A DNA stretch of 63,177 bases, filler included, from Neolecta irregularis DAH-3 (taxonomy: Eukaryota), in assembly GCA_001929475.1 (NCBI GenBank). It is 11 parts of 11 records of this genome, joined end to end, with 100 filler letters (N's around TTAATTAATTAA, not from the genome) between each part and the next. Parts side by side here need not be neighbours in the genome. Positions count along the whole stretch, not along the records: positions 10,810 to 23,751 come from LXFE01000886.1; 10 more parts are not named here. One strand, 5' to 3'. Below, one piece after another: positions 4,231 to 62,100 of the stretch. The position numbers were made by a program, and so were the translations under genes. Each line of letters starts with the position of its first letter. Position 1 is the stretch's first letter. The notes under the pieces were generated by a model that had not been told where the DNA came from, did no database searches, and saw nothing but the letters and a program-made list of their open reading frames with translations.

Positions 4231-4330
4231 NNNNNNNNNNNNNNNNNNNNNNNNNNNNNNNNNNNNNNNNNNNNTTAATTAATTAANNNNNNNNNNNNNN
4301 NNNNNNNNNNNNNNNNNNNNNNNNNNNNNN
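4231..4330. other. Artificial contig spacer (N-run + TTAATTAATTAA + N-run); others near 10711, 23752, 42571, 48530, 54110, 57488, 59336, 60562, 62001
   Basis: The same approximately 100-nt design with a six-frame stop linker occurs ten times. Confidence 0.98.
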
Positions 4331-10152: not shown

Positions 10153-10710
10153 TCAAAAGCCGCGACTTAGAAGCAAGCCCTCGCTTTTTGCGCGCTCGGG
10201 AAGGGAGTGCATGTTGTAGTCCATACCCAGGAAACTCAGAGGGGATCTCAAAGAATAGGTTGGTCTTGAATAGGCCGAGAGATCGAGTTCGTTTGAATTT
10301 GAGTAGACGTAATTGGGCGGGGTGCTACTCATCTCTGGACTGGATTCCTCGCAGGTGCTGATCATGGGCGGAACTGCCGATGAATGTGAGCTGCTAGAGG
10401 AGCAAGTCCGTTGGTGCATTTTGTTGTGTTGTTTAAGATTATCTGATCGTGAGAATTTCTTGGGACATAAAGTGCACGAGTATGGTTTTTCCTGGGTATG
10501 TGTACGGACATGCCTGCTTGTTAGAGGGGGGGGTTAGAAAATATCGACCTTTTGAGATGTTCCAGGCGTTTAAACAGCTTGCTGCAGTTTGGAATTGGGC
10601 AGGTGAATGTTTTCCCGTTTTCGTATTCTGCGCCGAGGCCGGTTGACTGTTCGATGCCGTGTGAGAGTAGACGATTTAAACGGATGGGAGCCGCGGCGGG
10701 GCCCGAGCCN
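10153..10710 (-). CDS. STE12: C-terminal part of a Ste12/SteA-like transcription factor with two C2H2 fingers (5'-truncated)
   Basis: [54 protein letters not shown] matches the SteA-type finger pair. The STE domain would lie in the gap. Confidence 0.7.
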
Positions 10711-10809
10711 NNNNNNNNNNNNNNNNNNNNNNNNNNNNNNNNNNNNNNNNNNNTTAATTAATTAANNNNNNNNNNNNNNNNNNNNNNNNNNNNNNNNNNN
10801 NNNNNNNNN

Positions 10810-11100
10810 TTTATTAGTGATATCAAATAAATCGTACTCTTTTTGTAGCCATCTTTCGGACCTGCTCCTTTATTAGTGATATCAAATAAATCGTACTCTT
10901 TTGGTAGTCATCTTTCGGACCTGCTCCTTTATTAGTGATATCAAATAAATCATACTCTTTTGGTAGTCATCTTTCGGACCTGCTCCTTTATTAGTGATAT
11001 CAAATAAATCGTACTCTTTTGGTAGCCATCTTTCGGACCTGCTCCTTTATTAGTGATATCAAATAAATCGTACTCTTTGAGTAGCCATCTTTCGGACCTC
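10810..11100. repeat. 59-bp tandem array (about 4.9 copies, running into the gap); each unit = 30-nt exon + 29-nt intron on the minus strand
   Basis: TTATTAG recurs at 10811, 10870, 10929, 10988 and 11047. The minus strand of each unit contains GTAYGA..CACTAAT..AAG. Confidence 0.9.
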
Positions 11101-11329
11101 CTTTCTCTTTTACATTCTTGTTGGTATTCTTGTTGGTATCGATTCTGGCATCGATTCCGATTCTGGCATCGATTCTGGTATCGATTCTGGCATCGATTCT
11201 GGCATCGATTCTGGCATCGCTTCTGGCATCGAATTTTGCAAAAATACTATCAATTTCATTGCAAACTCGCACGTCCGGCGATCTTGGTAAAGGGCCCTGT
11301 GGAGCCTTTAGTTTTTTGCGTTTGACCAT
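10810..11329 (-). CDS. Hypothetical Lys-rich protein with DARI repeats and spliced RAGPKD(G/D)Y(Q/K)K repeats (3'-truncated)
   Basis: MVKRKKLK..EIDSIFAK..(DARI)n..GGPKDGYSK, then continuing in frame after removal of the 29-nt introns. Head-to-head with gap1. Confidence 0.6.
11137..11232. repeat. 12-bp tandem repeat (GGCATCGATTCT-like) encoding DARI
   Basis: About 7 imperfect copies are directly visible. Confidence 0.9.
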
Positions 11330-11447
11330 ATCTCGGGCAAACTCCGACTTCACCCTGTACCTGAAACCTTCTGGCCCTCGTCATAACAATCACTGCCCAT
11401 AACTAACCCCGACTTAACCTCTAGCTGGTCACACTCAACTTGAAGCA

Positions 11448-14139
11448 ATGTCGCTTCTCAGTGCAAACGGACCGCCTCCGTCACCAGGCATAAGCCGTTT
11501 GGCTTCGCGACGTACCACTACTTTCTCTTCCCATTCAGACTCGAGTCGGTCTGCACGGAGCAGCAAGCGCTACAGCGTCACTGCAATTTACTCCATCGCT
11601 GCAGAGCAGGATGTCGAGGTCCAGGATGAATTATCTCGCGGTGCGTCTCTAACCCCTATCTGTACCCATCTGTAGCCCAGCGAAAGCTTCGAGAACTAAA
11701 GGCAAAGATATCCGTACAGTCAAAGAAGAATTTCGTGCTAGAAAGGGATGTCCGCTATCTCGACTCGCGTATCGCTCTGCTTATCCAGAACCGCATGGCC
11801 CTTGACGAGGTACACAACCCGCAAGATTGACGTTGACCAAGTAGCAAAACGAGGTCGCCAGTCATCTCGAGGGCGCAGAAGAGCTCCTGGTCGGAACTTT
11901 TCCAGATGACCGCAAACTTAACGTGCGCTCTGTTACGTGCCCATACTGACCAACAGCTCTACAGCAACCTCTTCTTCCTTTTGCAAACCGAACCCAGACA
12001 TATCGCTTCCCTTTGTCGTCTTGTCACCCTTACAGAGATCGACACTCTCCTTCAAACAGTAATGTTTACGATTTACGGTCAGCAATACGAAAGTCGAGAA
12101 GAACACCTCTTACTCACAATGTTTCAGGTACATTGTCTGACATTCTCGTTTGATTGCTAGTCGGTACTTTCTGCTCAGTTTGAAGCCACAACCGAGTTTG
12201 CCTCTTTGCTCCGTCAAAACACTCCTGTTTCTCGAATGATGAATACGTATACAAGGCGGGGCCCCGGCCAAGCTTACCTCCGCACCGTCCTCGCAGAGAG
12301 GATCAATTCTCTCATCGAACACAAAGACCTCAACCTAGAAATTAATCCTCTAAAAGTCTACGAGCAAATGCTCAATCAGATTGAGCAGGAAAGCGGAAAG
12401 CTACCCGGCCATTTGCCAAGAGGAGTTTCTGCAGAGGTTGCTGCTTTGAATGACGATACAGTCGCCATCATTCGACCTCGATTGACAATGCTCATGGAAG
12501 TGGCGAATTCTTTCCTAAATACAATCATTGGGAGTATCGACGCAGTTCCCTATGGAATTCGCTGGATCTGCAAACAAATTCGAAGTCTGACAAGGGTATG
12601 TCTTTCAACTGTTGTCCTGATGAAGCAGAGGAAATACCCCGAGGGCTCAGAGTTAGCCGTTTGCTCACTCATTGGCGGTTTCTTTTTTCTTCGATTCATT
12701 AATCCAGCGATCGTCACGCCTCATGCATACATGCTCGTTGACGGAGTGCCGAGGGATTCTCCCAGGAGGACTTTGACATTGGTAAATACCCCAACGATGT
12801 GTCGCCCATGTTTTAGGTTGCAAAGATGCTACAGAATCTGGCCAATAAGCCTAGCTACGCTAAAGAGCCATACATGACAAATCTGTCACCATTTATAGAT
12901 TCAAACAAGGCAAGGATCAACAAGTTTCTCAACGATTTGTGCGAAGTGGGAGACTTTTACGAATCTCTTGAAGTTTGTCTTATCGAGAGATTTTACTGAC
13001 CCCAGATCGATCAGTATATCGCCCTTTCAAAAAAGGACCTTCGTCTTAACATCACTCTCAATGAGGTCTACAGTACACATGCTTTGTTAGAGAAACATCT
13101 CGGAGTAATCGTATGACCTCTCTGCTTTTATTCTCACAACAGTCGCCTGATTCCAATTCGCATCTTCGAATCATTTTAAACGAACTTGGCCATGCGCCTG
13201 CCCCGCTTCCACGGAAAGAGAACCGCGCCATTGAGGTCGAACTATACAGCCGATGGGAAAGTCCAGTGTCTGGTTTGATTCATGCACTTTTGTCCACTCA
13301 TTCCTAGAACTGACAGAGGCACTTGATATCACGAGCTCGGACCTCTTATTTATGGAAACCAAATCGGCATTTGTTCAACTAATCCGTTCTCTACCGCCAT
13401 CTTCCTCAGCTCTAAAGTATCCGTTGGATCTACAAAAAGTGGCAGATACGGCCGCAAAATTAAAGGATGCTGGTTTGGTTCGTAAAGGAATCAAGGCCCT
13501 CGATATGCTTCGAGAACTTGCCGAACTACACGTTGTCGATAAGAATGACCGCTTTAACCCTCTTGTGGACGAAGTTGACCAAGAACTCGCACACCTTGGG
13601 TCTTTGCGGGAAAAGGTGATACGTGAGACACGCTCTTTAGATTCGGTTTATAAAACAATCTGCGACCATAACGAATACCTTCGTAGTCAGCTCGAAACAT
13701 ACAAGTCATATTTGCAAAACGTCCGCAGCGGTGGCGTCAGCGGTGGCGTCGGTTTAGTTACGGTTGGCGGCAAAGAGAAGAAAGCTCCAAAGTCTCAACT
13801 TCTCGGACCGTATAAATTCACTTTCCAACAACTGGAGAAAGAAGGAATCATTGTTGCCAGCTCTATACCTGAACAACGAAGGTCGCATACTTTCTTTGAT
13901 CTCTCCTCCCCTGTTCCAGGAACGTTTATCATAGCTCTGAAATACAAAGGTAACAAGACCATTCCATTCCTAGCTGACATTCAGGACGATCCAAGGGACT
14001 TCTTGAGCTTGATCTCAAACTTGACGATCTCTTGGAAATGCAGCAGAACAATATGAACAAGCTGGACTTGGAATATGTTCATCTCGATGTTGTAAAGATC
14101 TTGGCACTGTTAAACAGGCAATTCTCACGTAAGAAATAG
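11448..14139 (+). CDS. gap1: Ras GTPase-activating protein (S. pombe Gap1/Sar1 type)
   Basis: [60 protein letters not shown], and the RasGAP_C end [10 protein letters not shown]. Confidence 0.93.
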
Positions 14140-14298
14140 AATGTTTAATCGGAGGGCGTTGGCTCGGTTCTTGTGGATATTAGTGCTATAATTGATCTAA
14201 ATCTCACTCCCCGTATTCCATTTACATTTTGTGACGTTTTCTTTTTCTTGATGTTTGAGGTCGGATTGGTTGTTTATTCCAAATTCGGCCATCCTGCC

Positions 14299-15061
14299 AT
14301 GACTGGACAAGATCCTCAAACACTACCCAAGATTGAGCTTGAATCGCTAAAAGATTTATTATTCCTCTCAGACAATCTTTCTCGAGCAGCTCACGAGAAA
14401 TTGGAACAAAATTTGCCCTCCACAAATGAAGACGATCCCGTTCGACAAGCCGTCGATAAGGCTCTTCAACAAGTAGCCTGAATTATAACCTATCTTGTTA
14501 ACTTTAGTTCTTAACGCGCACTTTTGAACTGGCTCTTCCAAGTATTCGCGTGAATGGCATGAACGCAGACGTCGTCCAATTCAGGGAGGCCACGAAAGAA
14601 TCGACTGAAGGTGGGAATCGCCGTACAATTGACGACTCATAATTGCAGTATTTGAACCATACAACCCTGATCTGATTCACCAAGTTGAAGATTTACAGAA
14701 AGAGATAGAAGACACCACTCTATCGATCTCTCAGTTACGAAGAAATGCACCTAAAAAGATTGCTCAGATATATGCATCAAGTCTTGAACCAGACGTAGCG
14801 CAGACATTGCCTGTGGATGAAAATGACCCAATGGAAGAGGCCATATCGGTCCCTTTTATTCCCAGAGAAGAATCCGTTAGATCGGAATACATTCACCTGA
14901 TGGAGAACTTGCAAAAATTAACCAAGGTAACCGGTATCTTGTATATCAGACCGGCTGAACCGCAGACAATTCCTTCTGCTGTTGCACACGTAGAAAGGGC
15001 ACATGATGTTGTACGGACTTTGTCAGGGGCGGCAAAGTCTCGGATACCACCACATTCGTAA
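14299..15061 (+). CDS. NSL1: Kinetochore Mis14/Nsl1-like protein
   Basis: KIELESLKDLLFL..AAHEKLEQNLP..FELALPSIRVNG..FEPYNPDL..LRRNAPKK..VERA pattern. Confidence 0.7.
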
Positions 15062-23672: not shown

Positions 23673-24329
23673 TAGCTTCACAAATCCACAATTCCAAGGC
23701 CATTTAAACTTGTTAATTGGCTGATAATGAGTCCTCTGGACCAAGACTAGANNNNNNNNNNNNNNNNNNNNNNNNNNNNNNNNNNNNNNNNNNNNTTAAT
23801 TAATTAANNNNNNNNNNNNNNNNNNNNNNNNNNNNNNNNNNNNNNNNNNNNTTAACGAGTACTTACACAATGGAGGTAGCTATTCAACCATTGGCTAGAA
23901 ACGATTCAAGTAACCCCTGACCCCTATGCAGATTTGAGGAACGCATTGGATAGATCAAAGAAGAATCTAGAAACACTGGTCCACGCGTTTCGCGACTCTT
24001 GGAAGTTTGGAGTGAACCACGTCAGCGAAGACAAAACCATGCAGCGGAAAATAACCAGAGCTGCCTTTGAAAAAAGATATCTACTTTTAGACCGTCACGG
24101 GGCTTAAAAAAGTATTTTAGTTCCAGAAATTCTGGTGGTGGGTGTAGAAAGCGCGGGTTGCAAGGGACTTTGCTGCACAGGGAAGCTGGCCAGTTGAAAG
24201 TTGAAAGGAAGCCCGCCGCCCGCAAATTCGTCTCTTTGACCAACCACTTCTTAAAACCAGTCCCAGCAAAAACCGCATACAACTCAACCCACCTCGCCAT
24301 CTTGCCCCCTCTCCGTCGCGCATTCAATC

Positions 24330-28105: not shown

Positions 28106-29059
28106 TGGAACACGAGCAATAGAATTCGGTATTCCCTAAACTCTTCATTATAGCTGCAGGGATGTCATGTAATTACATTTTCTTACAAACTCTTCCAATC
28201 AGAGAGTCTAGCCTTTTTTAATTAAGAATAGGTTCAAATTACTTCTTTGTAGGAATAATTAACTCAATCAAGCCTCACTGAATTGAGTTCAAGTTGTAAA
28301 CAGGTTTTATTGAACTGAAAGATGAACTATTTACAGAAAATTAGCTATAAGTACCATGAACAAGGTGACCTGGGTCATTTCATCATCTCAAGGTCTATCC
28401 TCCCAATGTCTAGAAACACTGATAGAGGGTAATAATTTATATAATTTATTTTCCCTTTGTTGAATTGATCGAATCATAGCATCGTTGTAAGATGTCTTTC
28501 TCCTCAACCTTGTTTGACTTGCTATTTATAAATTACTGTTTAGTACAATCTGATATTATTATTAGGGTTATTCTTGTAAACAGTTGAGCCTCTCAAGCCT
28601 ATCATCAAGAAAATCCGGATGAGCATCATCAACATAAATTGATGAACGCATCTGGACGATAGTTGGAAAGAAAGGCAATTAAAGTGATTGAATTTGTGGA
28701 CTGAAGATGAAAGATGTAGAAATTAATAGATGATGATGAGAGTATTGTCTACAAAAGAATATTTGGAGAACACAATGCATGTCTACAGTATTTTGATTCA
28801 TTCAATGATCCGAGAAAACTATCATTCGGAGGATCATTGAATCTCAAAATAAGGCAAAATTCTCCTTAATCTCCAGGTGTATTGGTAATTTTTAATCAAT
28901 AAACACGAATGAAAAAAACGCTAGATTTGAATGTCGGACGCAACCTTGTGATTTTTGGGTTGATATAGTGCAAAGACTTGCAAAGACCAAATTGAAAACA
29001 TAGTTGTTAAATAAAACGTCAACTTTAAACATTGCATTGATCTCGCGGCTCTTTTACTT

Positions 29060-29490
29060 TGATGGTTTCATCCTCTTTTTCAGGTTTTACGATTTTATGT
29101 CGTTCTCGGAGATTTGTTCATCTCCTGCAATCGACTCTTTTATTTCTTTGATAGTTTCTTCTTCATTTTCAGACTGTACGATTTTATGTTCACTCTCAGA
29201 GATTTGTTCGTCTCCTGCAATCGACTCTTTTATTTCTTTGATAGTTTCTTCTTCATTTTCAGGCTGTACGATTTTATGGTCACTCTCAGAGATTTGTTCG
29301 TCTCCTGCGGTTGACTCTTTTACTTCTGTCATAGTTTCATCCTCTTTTTCAGGCTGTACGATTTCATGCTCGCTCTCAGATACGTGCTCATCTCCTGCGG
29401 TCGAGTCTTTTGTTTCTTTGATAGTTTCATCCTTTTTTTCATGCTGCAAGATTTTATCTTCGCTCTCAGACACCTGTTCATCTGCTACGG
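29060..29490. repeat. 90-bp coding tandem repeat (about 5 copies, 30-aa acidic unit)
   Basis: The same register recurs at 29101, 29191, 29281, 29371 and 29461. Confidence 0.9.
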
Positions 29491-30906
29491 GTATTTCATA
29501 ATGATCGACTTTCAAAACTGGGTCCTTGGCAGTAGCGGTATCTTCTTCTGCAAGAGTTTCATCCTCGTTCTCGTCCTCATTCTCACCCTCGTCCTCATTC
29601 TCACCCTCGTCCTCATTCTCACCCTCGTCCTCATTCTCACCCTCATCCTCAAGTTGAATTGCAGTAGTTTGTTCAGATTCACTACTGGCAGCCTTGGCCT
29701 TTCCCTTTGAGACACGCCGTCGTTTACGAGGAGACTCGAGTTCTTCAGAGACTTGCGTCTCTTCCTCAAGGTCCTGCTTTTCGTCTTCGTCTTCATCTTC
29801 ATCGTCGTAGATGGGTTGGTGTTCTGGACCGGCTGCATGTCAGAATATGAAAGGATAAATAGGTGTACCAGCCGTATCAATTGGCGGCTGTCCATCGATT
29901 CGTTTGAATGCATATTTGAGAACTTTAAACCCACTCAATCCTGTATCCAACCACCATTTCTTAACCTGATAGAGTCCATCATATCGATATCCCTCTTTTG
30001 GAGCCCACTTGCTCTTGCCCTTGTACCCACGGACTACTCTGATTGGTTTCCCTGTGTCACAAGAAATCTTTAATGCCAAATTCAACGCGGAGAGTTCCTG
30101 ATCTTTTGATTGAGGAGCGGTTCGAAGATTTTTGGGGTTATTCTTGGTTCCCTTGAGATCTCGTCCACCTGATCCAGTAAAAGTGAAGCGAAACCCTTCA
30201 TCGATATCATCTTCATACCCTCCACTGACAGCAACAGACCAACAGCCTAGTTGAGAATTTCCAGAGATGCCAGCAACGGTAGGCGCGTGAATTCCATCTC
30301 GTGAGCACTCCATTCGAGTAGACCACCAATAGCCCTGATTTATCAAAAACGTGGGGAAGCAGGAACCACATACGACTTTAATATGCTTTTGATTTCCAAA
30401 TATTTTAGGATCAGGCCGAACAAAGTTTCGATCTATATGGGCAACGTATCTGCCATTCGCCATACGCCGGGCGATTCCCTCCGAATCTTCCTGAACCGCG
30501 CTCCGACGCCTGCGAACCGTAAAACCATCTTCATCTTCATCTTCATCAGACCCCGAAAAGTCCGAGCCGTCCCTTTTTTCATCGCCGCTTGCATCTTCCC
30601 GATAACTCCGTTTCTAAAATCGGCAACTGGTCCGAATAAAAAAGCCCGGGTTACCTTTCCCCTTAACCGCTGAGAACTTCTACGACCGCCATCACTAATC
30701 ACCGCTGAAACAAGCGCCTTTCTTTTTCTTGAAACAACACCGTCTTTGAAACTCTCATTCCTGGCCATAGTCTTTGTCCTCGCCTTTCTCATTGGTTCAT
30801 TCGGACGCATAGGCGCCGGCGCACATTGCTCAAGTCCAAGTTGAGCCAACATGGCTCTATTCTCCCTCATCTTTTCATCTCGTAGTTTCTCATAATCAGT
30901 AGACAT
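29087..30906 (-). CDS. SRA/YDG (UHRF1-type methylcytosine-binding) domain protein with a long acidic repetitive tail
   Basis: WWSTRMECSRDGIHAPTVAGISG..SVAVSGGYEDDIDEG..FTFTGSGGRDL..NLALKISC..PIRVVRG..GYRYDGLY is a canonical SRA domain. Confidence 0.92.
29562..29650. repeat. 18-bp coding tandem repeat (EDEGEN)
   Basis: CCTCGTCCTCATTCTCAC occurs about 4-5 times. Confidence 0.9.
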
Positions 30907-42549: not shown

Positions 42550-42701
42550 GGCACGCTTACTCCGCCTGCCNNNNNNNNNNNNNNNNNNNNNNNNNNNNNN
42601 NNNNNNNNNNNNNNTTAATTAATTAANNNNNNNNNNNNNNNNNNNNNNNNNNNNNNNNNNNNNNNNNNNNCCTATATGTACTTTGAACAATTTGCGTATG
42701 T

Positions 42702-48363: not shown

Positions 48364-48427
48364 GGTTGGTGAGTTGAATTCACATGGATTTTTAATACCA
48401 ATACAAACAGGCATTGAATATATATTT

Positions 48428-48529
48428 GACATTTCTGATAATAACAGTGAATATATATTGACATCTGATAATAAACAGTGAATATAGACATCTCTGATAA
48501 TAAACAGTGAATATAGACATCTCTGATAA
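48428..48529. repeat. Tandem repeat of about 29 bp at a contig end
   Basis: GACATCTCTGATAATAAACAGTGAATATA-like unit, about 3.5 copies. Confidence 0.85.
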
Positions 48530-49254
48530 NNNNNNNNNNNNNNNNNNNNNNNNNNNNNNNNNNNNNNNNNNNNTTAATTAATTAANNNNNNNNNNNNNNN
48601 NNNNNNNNNNNNNNNNNNNNNNNNNNNNNACTTACCTAGCCAAGTACGTTTACTTAGGCTAGTTATATCACTTGGTCTTATCGTACTTCTAAGCGTCTAG
48701 CCCTGGGAATGGGAAATCAAAAGTTTACCTAGTTGATCACAATCGGAAGTTTTTGGTACTTATTTGTTGAGAACTTTTCAACTATCAACCTGTATAAAGG
48801 ATCGTATTTCCAACTGTGAAGCCGAGATAAGCCGAGATAGGCCGATAAGATAAGGTATTATGTTTAATATTTAGGCCTACCAAAGTAAATGCAATAATAT
48901 CATCATCTCTGACAAACACCAACCCTCCTTGTGACCCTTGTGTTATCGCTGCTGCTGGGTCTGGATCTTCTAGATGACAAATTTAAGACGACAGCGAATT
49001 TGGATTGTAAAACATTCGTTGAATCACCCAAAGAACTAGTCACTGCAGGTTACAAATAAACAGATTTTATGAAATGCATTGATACTTGTTAAAAACACTT
49101 TTAGCTTCCAAGTTTTGCTCCCCGGTCCATCCATCAATGACATTTCACCACAGCGAAAAAAAGATACAGAAAGAAGAGACCGCAACGAAAACAGAAAAGT
49201 TAAAAATGAATACCTTTTCAGCTTTTCTGAAAAAAGACTGGGGAGTGACTTGTT

Positions 49255-54109: not shown

Positions 54110-54209
54110 NNNNNNNNNNNNNNNNNNNNNNNNNNNNNNNNNNNNNNNNNNNNTTAATTAATTAANNNNNNNNNNNNNNNNNNNNNNNNNNNNNNNNNNN
54201 NNNNNNNNN

Positions 54210-54907: not shown

Positions 54908-55088
54908 AGGTAATGGGTGATGGTAATGGGTGATGGTAATGGGTGATGGTAACAGGTAATGGTGGCTAGGTATGGTGACAGGAATGGTGGCTAGGTATGG
55001 TGACAAGTAATGGTGACAGGTAATGGTGACAGGAATGGTGGCTAGGTATGGTGACAGGAATGGTGGCTAGGTATGGTGACAGGTAATG
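54908..55088. repeat. Compound 13-bp / 25-bp G-rich tandem repeats
   Basis: GGTAATGGGTGAT x3, then GGTGGCTAGGTATGGTGACAGGAAT about x4. Confidence 0.85.
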
Positions 55089-57371: not shown

Positions 57372-57674
57372 ATATATTTGCGTTCGCCAGCAAGAAAAAT
57401 ATCTCCATTTTCTAAAACAGGTGTTCTGTCCCACCTGTGGAATCGTCCCACCTGTGGAATCGCACAGCCACACCACCAAATCTGTAANNNNNNNNNNNNN
57501 NNNNNNNNNNNNNNNNNNNNNNNNNNNNNNNTTAATTAATTAANNNNNNNNNNNNNNNNNNNNNNNNNNNNNNNNNNNNNNNNNNNNTTTGCCGCGAACG
57601 ATAGTTGGGAGTTTTTCCAGCTATATTTTACCTATACTTATGGTAAAATTCAAAAAAGCAATCAAATAAACCAA

Positions 57675-57965: not shown

Positions 57966-60222
57966 AAGTGTCAGAGTAGATTCCTGATGAAATTGTGTGT
58001 TTATGGAAATTGATTAGTCTCTAGTGTTGCAGATGGCCCATATGAAGCTGTTATAGTCCTAATGCCAATGTGCTACACATTGAGATACCATCTAAACTTT
58101 GTAGTAGCAGATTATAGAGTGGCAATTATTACTGATCTCAGCATTAATGCTGCTGTTGTCCCTAAGCGTGAAGCACAGCACGCGCACTCGTTTCCAATGC
58201 GCCTTCCATCGGGGCTTTGCAGGCGAGGGTGTGGGTAAAAGAGCATTGCGGTGCTGGGTTTAGCAGCATAACAGGTCAAGGGCGTGGCCACCGTGTTGGC
58301 ACTTGCCAAGGATATTATTGTGAACAATCCAGTCTTTCGGGCAGCTTATTTTCCGTTGGTTGAACTAGGCTTCTAGGACACTATATGGGCCTGTCTATTG
58401 AGGGAGCAGCTTTGCTGATTTTCCTTCTTTCGCCATTGCCTTCCGGAAGATCTCTGTGCTGAGTAGTATTGAAGTGTCCCCATACTAACGGTGATCCACG
58501 GGTCGCCACAACCGTTCGGGGCGGCTAAAGGAACGGACGAAAGAAGCCGTCAACGTCATAGCCTCGGGCCCTCGGGGTAGTCATCGGACGGAATGGGAGT
58601 CAGAAATACTACATGCTGTCGATCACCTATTGCCCGCAACGTGCCCGACTGCCGCTAGTGCTGTTGTTCTCCGAAGCTCAGGCCCAGGCTTAGAAAAGTT
58701 GTAGACTAAAAGAGGCTATCTTTGCTGACAGAATCGCTGTCGTTCCCTTCTCAACTCCAAGTAAACGATCTGTCTGCTGGCGGTAGATTAAACAAGCTTC
58801 ATCCATTCTCTTGGATGATTGGTCAGATCTACCATCTGCAGATATGTATGTGATCTCATCATGTGATTCGCCAGCAGTTATGGTAACATAGTGACCTGAC
58901 CCAAACGAAACGACCAATACACGAGAGCGGTCACCAGTATTGTGTTTCCGTATGGCAAAGTAATATGAATTAGACTGATACGCAAAAGTATCTTTGGGCC
59001 CATACAACTTAAGAAAGAGTAATACAAGCTAATCAAAGTATGTTGAAAATTTAGGATCTGGAAGAATCCATGACTTGAGTGCCGAAATGAGTGACTTTCG
59101 ATCCAGATTATGCGATAGCAAAGCATGTGTTAGAACACTCGAGGATCTAGGACCGAAAATTTTCTCTGGTAGTGCAGCAGCGTACTAAGGGGACACGACT
59201 TCACCACAACGTCGCAACCCCCACCAGCTTACCACCGCCACCGCCAAAGTATCGGAACCAGCACAAGCAGCAGCAAGGGTAGCCGATCACCCCAGTCGGG
59301 CCTGTCACAGGCATCGCCACCCAGCCGATCAATAGNNNNNNNNNNNNNNNNNNNNNNNNNNNNNNNNNNNNNNNNNNNNTTAATTAATTAANNNNNNNNN
59401 NNNNNNNNNNNNNNNNNNNNNNNNNNNNNNNNNNNGCGCGGAACCGGGGGGGGGGGGGGTCTAAATAACCCCTACCCCCCACCAACCTTTACGGTAGGTT
59501 TATCCCACCCCCAACACATTCTGTGTTGGGGGGTACTGTTAGTGTTAACACCAATCATTAATTCTTCTCATCCAGCAGTATGATTTTCAGTCTAAAAGAA
59601 TGGCACATACTTGCTCAGCCCCCTGCCCACCAGCGCTGCTGCCCAAAAATCCCATCACTCCCACTGCTGTTACCACCCCAACCTCCACTGGGCGCTCGCG
59701 AAGCAGGGATGGCAAGGAGGGTGGAGAAGATGGCAGAGTTGAGGGGTGCGTGGAAGTGGGTGGAGACGGGGATGCCAAAGAGCAGGATGCTGCAGGGGCA
59801 CAGTTCAGCATGGCGGTTGAGCATGCGCAGGGCGAGACTGGGGAGGCATGGTCCAAGGAGACGAGGGCGATGTTTGCGACGAGGTGGACCGAGTGCAGCG
59901 GGTATGGCCGAGTGGCTGCAAAGTCTGGAGATGCTGTGAAAGCTGCGAAAGAGACCATGCAGAGATAATGTTGATTTGAGAAATATTGTAGAGAATATTG
60001 ATGATCTGGGCGGCCAATAAAATACGAATGGAGATTACAGGTAACGGCGCTGCCAACATCGAAAGAGCAGGCATACTTGCTGTACTTGAGTGAAGTAACG
60101 TCGTGGTCATGTGGAAATGCGCAGTTTGGAATTTTGTGTGCCGCCCAGCACCGAACACATTTTGTCGTGTTACGCGACGAAACCTCTTCTTCATTCAACT
60201 TAATTATCGTTTGAAGTCCACA

Positions 60223-60561: not shown

Positions 60562-60661
60562 NNNNNNNNNNNNNNNNNNNNNNNNNNNNNNNNNNNNNNN
60601 NNNNNTTAATTAATTAANNNNNNNNNNNNNNNNNNNNNNNNNNNNNNNNNNNNNNNNNNNN

Positions 60662-62000: not shown

Positions 62001-62100
62001 NNNNNNNNNNNNNNNNNNNNNNNNNNNNNNNNNNNNNNNNNNNNTTAATTAATTAANNNNNNNNNNNNNNNNNNNNNNNNNNNNNNNNNNNNNNNNNNNN

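Follow-up and report, generated by a model that had tools for sequence, protein, structure and literature searches.

A 59-bp tandem array in Neolecta irregularis DAH-3 that probably consists of miniature exon-intron modules

The stretch of DNA analysed here, hereafter the window, comprises 63,177 bases of Neolecta irregularis DAH-3 and carries, at the very end of one of its contigs, a tandem array of 59-bp units lying on the minus strand. We consider it fairly probable that this array is made of exon plus intron modules in an unannotated, lineage-restricted minus-strand gene, that it is spliced unit by unit and that it arose by tandem duplication. In one sequencing run that behaves like complementary DNA (cDNA), 35 or 32 nt are removed from the array at at least one junction, and these are lengths at which the introns of the neighbouring gene are spliced. 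The original prediction had interpreted each unit as one exon plus one intron and was right in kind, but the boundaries that it had drawn between exon and intron, and so the peptide that it had deduced, were wrong, so that it is supported in part.

The array and its first splice junction

Tandem Repeats Finder gives a period of 59 bp with 4.9 head-to-tail copies, 96% matches, 0% indels and a score of 538. All five matches of a 31-nt unit probe fall within the array and none elsewhere in the window, and the same holds for a 28-nt probe restricted to the AT-rich intron half of the unit (5/5 matches within the array, 0 outside); for both probes, 0 matches are expected from 100 shuffles. The 59-bp minus-strand array announced by the original prediction is thus real, and the 96% identity of its units fits the recent tandem amplification proposed for it. 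Dispersal of the kind known from introners amounts to 0 intron copies beyond the array in the 63-kb window. Furthermore, an exact 43-nt unit probe gave 0 matches against metagenome contigs and an Rfam scan of the whole window 0 matches. The units differ at four columns overall, namely one of the 35 intron columns and three of the 24 exon columns, and unit 1 is separated from the later units by a 3-nt indel. The intron, with a GC content of 0.31 vs 0.46 for the exon, is at least as uniform as the exon, these numbers being too small for a test.

The only minus-strand frame running from an ATG through both internal repeats and into the array is the open reading frame (ORF) that starts at 11329. 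Its first exon consists of 85 whole codons plus one base, so the intron that follows is in phase 1. Read without splicing, this ORF halts early, as had been noticed from the sequence, at a TGA (11002-11000) located in the second unit; since 59 is not a multiple of 3, only a spliced RNA keeps the frame open. Minus-strand donors, GTACGA or GTATGA, are found at 11073, 11014, 10955, 10896 and 10837, which are the positions at which the 29-nt introns of the original prediction had correctly been made to start. Each unit is best described as a 24-nt exon (GTCCGAAAGATGRCTACNNAAAGA) followed by a 35-nt intron with a GTAYGA donor, a CACTAAT motif and an end made of AAG-GAG-CAG. All three of these stacked acceptors preserve the frame from ATG 11329: removal of 35 nt keeps 24 nt and gives the repeat peptide SPKDGYQK, removal of 32 nt keeps 27 nt and gives TGPKDGYQK, and removal of 29 nt keeps 30 nt and gives RAGPKDGYQK. 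The product of the 35-nt form would read MVKRKK...EIDSIFAKF(D-A/T-R-I)n...KEKGGPKDGYSK, then SPKDGYQK, SPKDDYQK, SPKDDYQK and SPKDGYKK, the frame being open at the contig end.

Two public sequencing runs, X1 and X2, hold the locus, and the type of both is only guessed ('DNA?'). Their contigs were aligned at a likeness of 90, and what follows on X2 concerns the 16 pieces listed out of 54; such contigs drop rare forms and so cannot show absence, and contig depth is a poor measure of abundance from which no splicing ratio is derivable. In X1, a 7105-nt contig spans 11197-12200 unbroken and retains the introns of the divergent neighbouring gene, and this run behaves as genomic DNA. In X2, a 5573-nt contig skips 35, 35, 34 and 33 nt with GT..AG ends, which are exactly the first four introns of the same neighbour, and the bin depths at these four introns fit zero intron cover. 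Because this contig lacks the four introns, we infer that X2 is cDNA.

Two joints within the array were identified among the X2 pieces. The joint 11036->11072 (cut +2) corresponds to a skip of 11039-11073, that is 35 nt, at a contig depth of 23.4 and with a shorter side of 24 letters; the joint 11041->11074 corresponds to a skip of 11042-11073, that is 32 nt, at a contig depth of 12.1 and with a shorter side of 27 letters. Both read CT..AC on the plus strand, hence GT..AG on the minus strand, both begin at the donor 11073, and their acceptors, CAG for the 35-nt skip and GAG for the 32-nt skip, lie 3' of the AAG. The shorter sides of 24 and 27 letters are the very micro-exon lengths that each acceptor predicts, which fits contigs breaking at the next junction. 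Neither skip is present in X1, whose single-copy depth is 451.8. Tandem acceptors of the NAGNAG type, in which AGs 3 nt apart are used alternatively, change a protein by one residue without frameshift. The 35-nt and 32-nt joints, which share one donor and end at AGs 3 nt apart, represent such a use; unlike a plain NAGNAG, the array offers three stacked AGs (AAG, GAG and CAG) in each unit, and the choices could combine along the array.

It follows that an exon plus an intron per unit, spliced from the donor foreseen by the original prediction, stands for the junction seen in X2, and that the split is 24 + 35 nt (or 27 + 32 nt) and not 30 + 29 nt. Taking out the 29-nt segments does yield ...GGPKDGYSK RAGPKDGYQK RAGPKDDYQK RAGPKDDYQK RAGPKDGYKK as had been written, but the acceptors found in RNA give SPKDGYQK or TGPKDGYQK in place of RAGPKDGYQK. 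No 29-nt joint occurs among the X2 pieces listed, from which a minor form could have been dropped, and no exon-skipping joint (e.g., 94 nt), also suggested at the outset, occurs among them, though contigs cannot show absence. No X2 contig extends past 10810. Since a single junction position is found among the joints listed, the splicing of units 2-5 is extrapolated from the first.

How much the sequence would say by itself can be estimated from the window. Counting segments of 32-39 nt that look like introns, with GT at the start and YTRAY 5-12 nt ahead of a terminal AG, gives 215 starts in 124,594 strand positions, so that 0.20 such segments are expected by chance per 59-bp unit on both strands, and 0.26 in shuffled sequence. 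If the segment must also lie on the strand of the ORF and leave an open frame and a remainder divisible by 3, the chance falls to a few percent, by a rough multiplication rather than a computed test. This argument is suggestive and no more; it is the two X2 joints that carry the case.

Local intron style, copy number and position of the array

The intron style of this genome could be read from the gene located on the other side of the ORF and transcribed divergently, the two start codons being 118 nt apart (gap 11330-11447). Pfam identifies in it RasGAP (E = 1.6e-55) and RasGAP_C (E = 1.3e-28) domains, and its best database match, P0016, is a 1032-aa protein of Neolecta irregularis DAH-3 named GTPase-activating protein. 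All 1032 residues of P0016 thread without mismatch on 11448-15058, which needs 14 GT..AG introns of 35, 35, 34, 33, 33, 35, 33, 32, 35, 35, 63, 35, 38 and 39 nt, so that 13 of the 14 measure 32-39 nt. Thirteen of these introns end with YAG, one with GAG and none with AAG. A branch-like YTNAY motif is present in 12 of the 14, and in 11 of these 12 the intron ends 6-9 nt after its branch A. In the array, the branch A of CTAAT lies 5 nt from the end of the 29-nt form, 8 nt from that of the 32-nt form and 11 nt from that of the 35-nt form. Both the 35-nt and the 32-nt forms fall within the local range of 32-39 nt, 35 nt is the commonest length among the 14 introns of P0016, and the 35-nt form ends with CAG. 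The array introns thus combine GT..AG ends, a local length and a branch-like motif with removal from RNA, the latter at one junction position.

P0016 also carries PF08641 beside RasGAP and RasGAP_C, and its odd 63-nt intron (14092-14154) is the one that ends with GAG. This model looks like two adjacent genes fused by annotation and joined through the 63-nt intron, which, given the two genes suggested by Pfam, may be an annotation error. Intron lengths were also sought by scanning. A naive scan for GT..AG segments linking open frames showed no preferred length (flat histogram) and was set aside, and a scan filtered for donor and branch site gave 28 of 139 candidates at 32-41 nt vs about 10.6 expected if lengths were uniform, a count that includes the array's own forms and overlapping alternatives. 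As this count is compromised, the exact threading of P0016 was relied upon for the intron style. The genome paper describes 14.5 Mb, an N50 of 16 kb, 44% GC and 5,546 predicted genes, with DNA and RNA taken from fruiting bodies (PMC5309816); a word search of its main text finds no mention of intron, splicing, RNA-seq or transcriptome. The Neolecta passage of a further paper (PMC8476143) holds nothing on the array locus or on Neolecta intron length, and a literature search found nothing on short introns of Neolecta or on this locus in titles and abstract starts.

Eleven contigs make up the window, linked by 10 identical artificial spacers (N44 + TTAATTAATTAA + N44), and base 10810 is the first base after one of them. 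The array is therefore truncated by the end of its contig (10810-23751), the 3' end of the containing gene is missing, and the DNA across the spacer is not necessarily adjacent in the genome. The neighbouring contig carries on its minus strand, at 10153-10757, a C2H2 zinc-finger ORF (zf-C2H2, E = 1e-5) cut by the spacer, with at least one short intron-like break between frames; it is not necessarily the genomic neighbour of the array.

Copy number was estimated from X1. Among the 8 of 13 X1 pieces listed, array unitigs have depths of 0.5-2.8x the single-copy value, and such depths indicate a genomic array about as long as assembled and not a collapsed giant. A second form of the 12-bp repeat of exon 1, with 6 bases absent at 11155 and a C>T change at 11167, reaches a depth of 210 of 491 in X1, and one unit-specific unitig is found at half depth (227.5 vs 451.8). 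These values hint at two haplotypes in the sequenced material, which may differ in both repeats. The features of the locus are collected in Table 1.

Table 1. Coordinates of the array, of the putative ORF and of their surroundings in the window (35-nt intron forms unless stated otherwise)
Feature	Position	Strand	Basis or remark
Tandem array, 59-bp unit x 4.9	10810..11099	-	Tandem Repeats Finder, probes 5/5
Exon 1 of putative ORF, ATG 11329 to last base before first donor	11074..11329	-	85 whole codons (P0001) + one base
12-bp in-frame repeat in exon 1, (D-A/T-R-I)n	11134..11232	-	Tandem Repeats Finder, translation
Intron 1, 35-nt form (GTACGA...CACTAAT...CAG)	11039..11073	-	One junction seen directly in RNA contigs
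Intron 1, alternative acceptors	11042 (32 nt, seen), 11045 (29 nt, absent from listed joints)	-	X2 joints
Micro-exon 2, 24 nt, SPKDGYQK (27 nt with 32-nt acceptor)	11015..11038	-	Sequence, joint sides
Intron 2, 35-nt form, identical to intron 1	10980..11014	-	Splicing predicted from identity
TGA closing the frame if intron 1 is retained	11000..11002	-	ORF reading, 110-aa product
Micro-exon 3, 24 nt, SPKDDYQK	10956..10979	-	Sequence
Intron 3, 35-nt form, donor GTATGA = sole variable intron column	10921..10955	-	Sequence
Micro-exon 4, 24 nt, SPKDDYQK	10897..10920	-	Sequence
Intron 4, 35-nt form	10862..10896	-	Sequence
Micro-exon 5, 24 nt, SPKDGYKK	10838..10861	-	Sequence
Intron 5, first 28 nt, contig ends	10810..10837	-	Sequence
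RasGAP/RasGAP_C gene, intron-style reference, annotated model fused to downstream gene	11448..15058	+	Pfam, exact threading
Artificial contig joiner (N44 + TTAATTAATTAA + N44), non-biological	10710..10809	.	1 of 10 identical
Spacers	4231-4330, 10710-10809, 23752-23851, 42571-42670, 48530-48629, 54110-54209, 57488-57587, 59336-59435, 60562-60661, 62001-62100		

Alternative explanations and coding status

Several observations weigh against spliced modules in a protein-coding gene. The RNA support for splicing of the array is thin: it consists of one contig per joint in the single run X2 and concerns only one junction position among the joints listed; the joint sides are below 30 letters and the likeness below 95, conditions under which joints often stem from repeats, and both joints carry the flag 'between: not known'. 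Moreover, unspliced X2 pieces cover the array at similar or higher depth, such as a 53-nt piece (10968-11020) at a depth of 63. Genomic contamination is an unlikely source of these pieces because the four neighbour introns have no cover in X2; the unspliced signal would rather reflect either incomplete or inefficient splicing or RNA from the other strand. On the side of the protein, the 3' end of the gene and its stop codon are lost at the contig end, and the three variable exon columns all alter the amino acid. Pfam returned 0 families at E<=1 for the 126-aa ORF translation, and the guess of a DUF1764 domain, made from the EIDSIF motif, finds no support in this search of the unspliced translation. 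A HMMER search of 1.84 billion representatives with the 85-aa exon 1 found 14 hits at E<=1e-3, and the seven of the 14 that were inspected are all D-x-R-type low-complexity repeats and not orthologs; an Atlas search of the ORF gave no usable hit. There is no near-identical protein among the 1.84 billion representatives, so the ORF seems unannotated in that set. Translation of the array is accordingly no more than putative.

These points would be accommodated if the array were spliced but non-coding: as a neutral minisatellite it might lie within an untranslated region, or within a transcript that is antisense or comes from a divergent promoter, its usable splice signals would be there by chance and its frame would be open by accident; we regard this as unlikely, though it has to be taken seriously. 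It agrees with the absence of any homolog, Pfam family or Atlas neighbour in the searches above, with the non-synonymous nature of all three variable exon columns and with the large unspliced fraction of the array vs the clean splicing of the neighbour introns. Most of the open frame is made up of two internal repeats, which leaves few independent open codons and counts against coding. A random 59-bp unit is expected to contain about 0.2 intron-like segments, and an intron-like AT-rich minisatellite is present also in apparently non-coding DNA at 48415-48529. Also counted against coding is the X2 contig 13, from which the first four neighbour introns are absent; over 11221-11639 it covers the start of exon 1 without skip and runs unbroken over the 118-nt gap between the divergent start codons, so that either the head-to-head transcripts overlap or the RasGAP leader is long. 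On the other hand, a single minus-strand frame leads from an ATG via both repeats into the array; whichever of the three acceptors is used, the exon part that is left has a length divisible by 3, and the indels observed, 3 nt between units and 6 nt between the X1 forms of the 12-bp repeat, preserve this frame. Exon 1 is further covered by X2 pieces over 11081-11250, and the exon-1 pieces have depths of 35-82 vs 168 for the neighbouring gene, within a few-fold; this looks above trace level, as far as such a poor measure as contig depth can tell. On balance we lean, by a modest amount, towards a protein-coding ORF.

The other explanations concern the junctions and the assembly. The two joints might be artefacts, due to misplaced repeat contigs, variant DNA units or another locus, with the array left unspliced. 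Their short sides (24 and 27 letters), the likeness of 90, the single contig behind each and the guessed type of X2 speak for this, but 59-nt skips or arbitrary ends would then be expected; instead the ends are exact GT..AG on the strand of the gene at the predicted donor, the skips match the intron size of this genome and differ by 3 nt at consecutive AGs, X1 shows no such skip at a depth of about 452, and X2 lacks the four neighbour introns. We hold such an artefact to be quite improbable. That introns of 29 nt ending with AAG, together with 30-nt exons, give RAGPKDGYQK as the main product appears very improbable: GT..AAG and CACTAAT are present in every unit, the removal of 29 nt is in frame and a minor isoform could be lost with the rare variants that contigs drop, but the joints listed are of 35 and 32 nt, each of the 14 neighbour introns is longer than 29 nt (32-63 nt), none of them uses an AAG acceptor (13 YAG and 1 GAG) and the branch A would lie 5 nt from the intron end vs 6-9 nt in 11 of 12. 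Finally, it is scarcely credible that the array is an assembly artefact and does not exist in the genome as drawn. Its position would allow it, since assemblers fail on repeats at the ends of contigs; against this, X1 unitigs tile the array with 0 mismatches, those specific for a unit variant have about 0.5-1.4x the single-copy depth, and the units differ at four columns, contrary to a pure loop artefact. A misassembly, which had been named as a condition for rejecting the original prediction, is therefore not what the reads indicate.

Other arrays of the window were recorded alongside. At 48415-48529 on the plus strand, an AT-rich array of 29-32-nt units ends at another contig end; its units are intron-like (GTGAAT...CTGAT...AACAG), the first G being shared with the previous unit. 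It was considered as a set of stacked introns and rejected, since the DNA in which it lies, upstream of a cyclophilin-like gene on the minus strand, is apparently non-coding, and the resemblance is probably due to chance. At 29057-29483 on the minus strand, a 90-bp x 4.8 array with 86% matches reads, as far as the sequence alone tells, as an in-frame Glu/Asp/Lys-rich repeat; further acidic repeats, of 12 and 18 bp, come after it at 29559-29651. Near a contig start, at 54909-55088, there is a nested tandem array of 25/51/76 bp rich in GGTAAT/GGTGAC.

Proposed origin and relation to known systems

With splicing of the array as the preferred reading, transcription would proceed on the minus strand, divergently from the RasGAP gene, and each unit would act as a 24-nt phase-1 micro-exon followed by a 35-nt intron. 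Of three AGs placed at 3-nt steps, the spliceosome would mostly choose the CAG (35 nt) and at times the GAG (32 nt). Each spliced unit would add SPKDGYQK or TGPKDGYQK to the protein, and a retained intron would lead to the stop at TGA 11002-11000. The four full intron copies and the partial one differ at one variable column, are all in phase 1 and are flanked by homologous exons, which is what a multiplication of introns in tandem produces.

The units themselves suggest how the introns were gained. Units are homologous as far as 7 nt upstream of the exon. AAAGGAG|GTCCG is exonic in unit 1 and codes for K-G-G-P; in the later units, the corresponding AAAGGAGCAG|GTCCG, i.e., AAAGGAG plus CAG, forms the intron tail. 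As AAAGGAG is exonic in the former and intronic in the latter, the duplicated segment would have run from the exon end through the donor and branch site. Most likely, slippage or unequal exchange duplicated the end of an exon and, with it, a donor and a branch site belonging to the next intron or to sequence further downstream. The resulting junction, CACTAAT|AAAGGAG(CAG), would have put formerly exonic AGs 5, 8 and 11 nt behind the branch site, where they could serve as acceptors. The extra CAG, both the best acceptor and the one mainly used, is present in all later units and absent from unit 1. The acceptor AGs of the new introns hence appear to be copied exon sequence, and the origin of the array is best viewed as a hybrid, in which an internal tandem duplication of an intron may have been combined with a recruitment of splice sites from the duplicated exon in the manner of Rogers, in the diversified version put forward for potato RdRp (PMC4974935).

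Intron multiplication by internal tandem gene duplication is known from Arabidopsis TOUCH3 (Knowles & McLysaght 2006) and from the work of Gao & Lynch 2009, both as cited in PMC4974935. As in TOUCH3-type cases, a segment holding exon and intron is duplicated in tandem within a gene and leaves near-identical introns of the same phase and extra peptide repeats. Unlike these cases, the unit of the array measures only 59 bp and occurs in at least 4.9 copies, on the scale of a minisatellite, and the duplicate seems to hold only the 5' part of the intron (donor and branch site), with acceptors coming from the copied exon. The model of Rogers (1989), in which tandem duplication of an AGGT creates an intron, and its variants have been documented for vertebrate ATP2A1 and for the potato RdRp gene (PMC4974935) and, in fission yeasts, for two genes considered below (PMC3629103). 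The array resembles this model in that the duplication itself supplies splice signals and units meet at an AG|GT (GGAG|GTCC for unit 1, GCAG|GTCC for the later ones), of which the AG is the main acceptor. As in potato RdRp, some splice signals are inherited from a parental intron and others recruited from exon. It departs from the strict model in that the internal GTAYGA, and not the boundary GT, serves as donor and that the mRNA becomes longer by 24 or 27 nt with every unit, whereas according to Rogers splicing removes the duplicate and leaves the mRNA as it was.

Other systems share single traits with the array. In SPOG_01682 and SOCG_00815, both from fission yeasts, introns are built from 24-nt tandem repeat units (PMC3629103); these genes are also from Taphrinomycotina and also involve 24-nt repeats, but a single intron spans several units there, unlike the array, in which each unit has its own. 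The spider silk genes Flag and MaSp2 contain near-identical introns throughout their repeats (PMC3522626), and like them the array is made of tandem exon-intron modules with almost identical introns within one gene. The micro-exon genes of Schistosoma have very short symmetric exons, introns of up to 5 kb and exon skipping (bioRxiv 10.1101/2023.06.21.545858). The tiny, frame-preserving exons are common to both; in contrast, the Schistosoma genes have long introns and non-identical modules and vary by skipping, no skipping joint being found among the array joints listed. The introner-like elements of fungi are near-identical, recently gained introns dispersed among unrelated genes (PMC4457414); the introns of the array are near-identical too, but all five copies found in the 63-kb window sit in one array. 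A further comparable case is the kringle IV-2 repeat of LPA, a tandem exon-intron repeat. The units of Flag, MaSp2 and LPA are larger, from hundreds up to thousands of bases, and code for repeats that are folded or long, unlike the 8-9 residues and the 35-nt intron that fit here into 59 bp.

The array is thus a miniature form of a known route of intron multiplication, unusual in its scale. A search for a previously described miniature exon-intron array found none in titles and abstract starts, within a literature in which subscription journals were largely outside the scope. Were introns of about 35 nt not spliced in this fungus, a complete module would not fit in 59 bp. Beyond its origin, we would tentatively, and with some doubt, suggest that the array is a translated, spliced minisatellite of variable length with a working intron in each unit. 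Slippage of the DNA would then change the number of introns and of 8-residue units together, the stacked acceptors would give rise to combinatorial isoforms with 8- or 9-residue (or 10-residue) repeats, and inefficient splicing would switch between a 110-aa protein and a long repeat protein.

Definite sources of gained introns are rarely identified: a fission-yeast survey could assign one to only two of 62 (PMC3629103), and according to the potato paper few cases of gain from a known source are proven (PMC4974935). Here, at least four near-identical introns stand beside their source in a genome whose introns are near the smallest workable size, and the exonic sequence of unit 1, placed next to the intronic tails of the later units, shows where the acceptors come from. 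For annotation, the lesson is that an array whose period is not a multiple of 3, located at a contig end, was apparently missed from the protein set searched. If the proposed reading is true, tandem slippage propagates introns at the scale of a minisatellite, and splicing can handle a 24-nt exon with a 35-nt intron on either side. Furthermore, variation in repeat number would change the number of introns within a population, and the locus would represent serial intron gain caught in progress.

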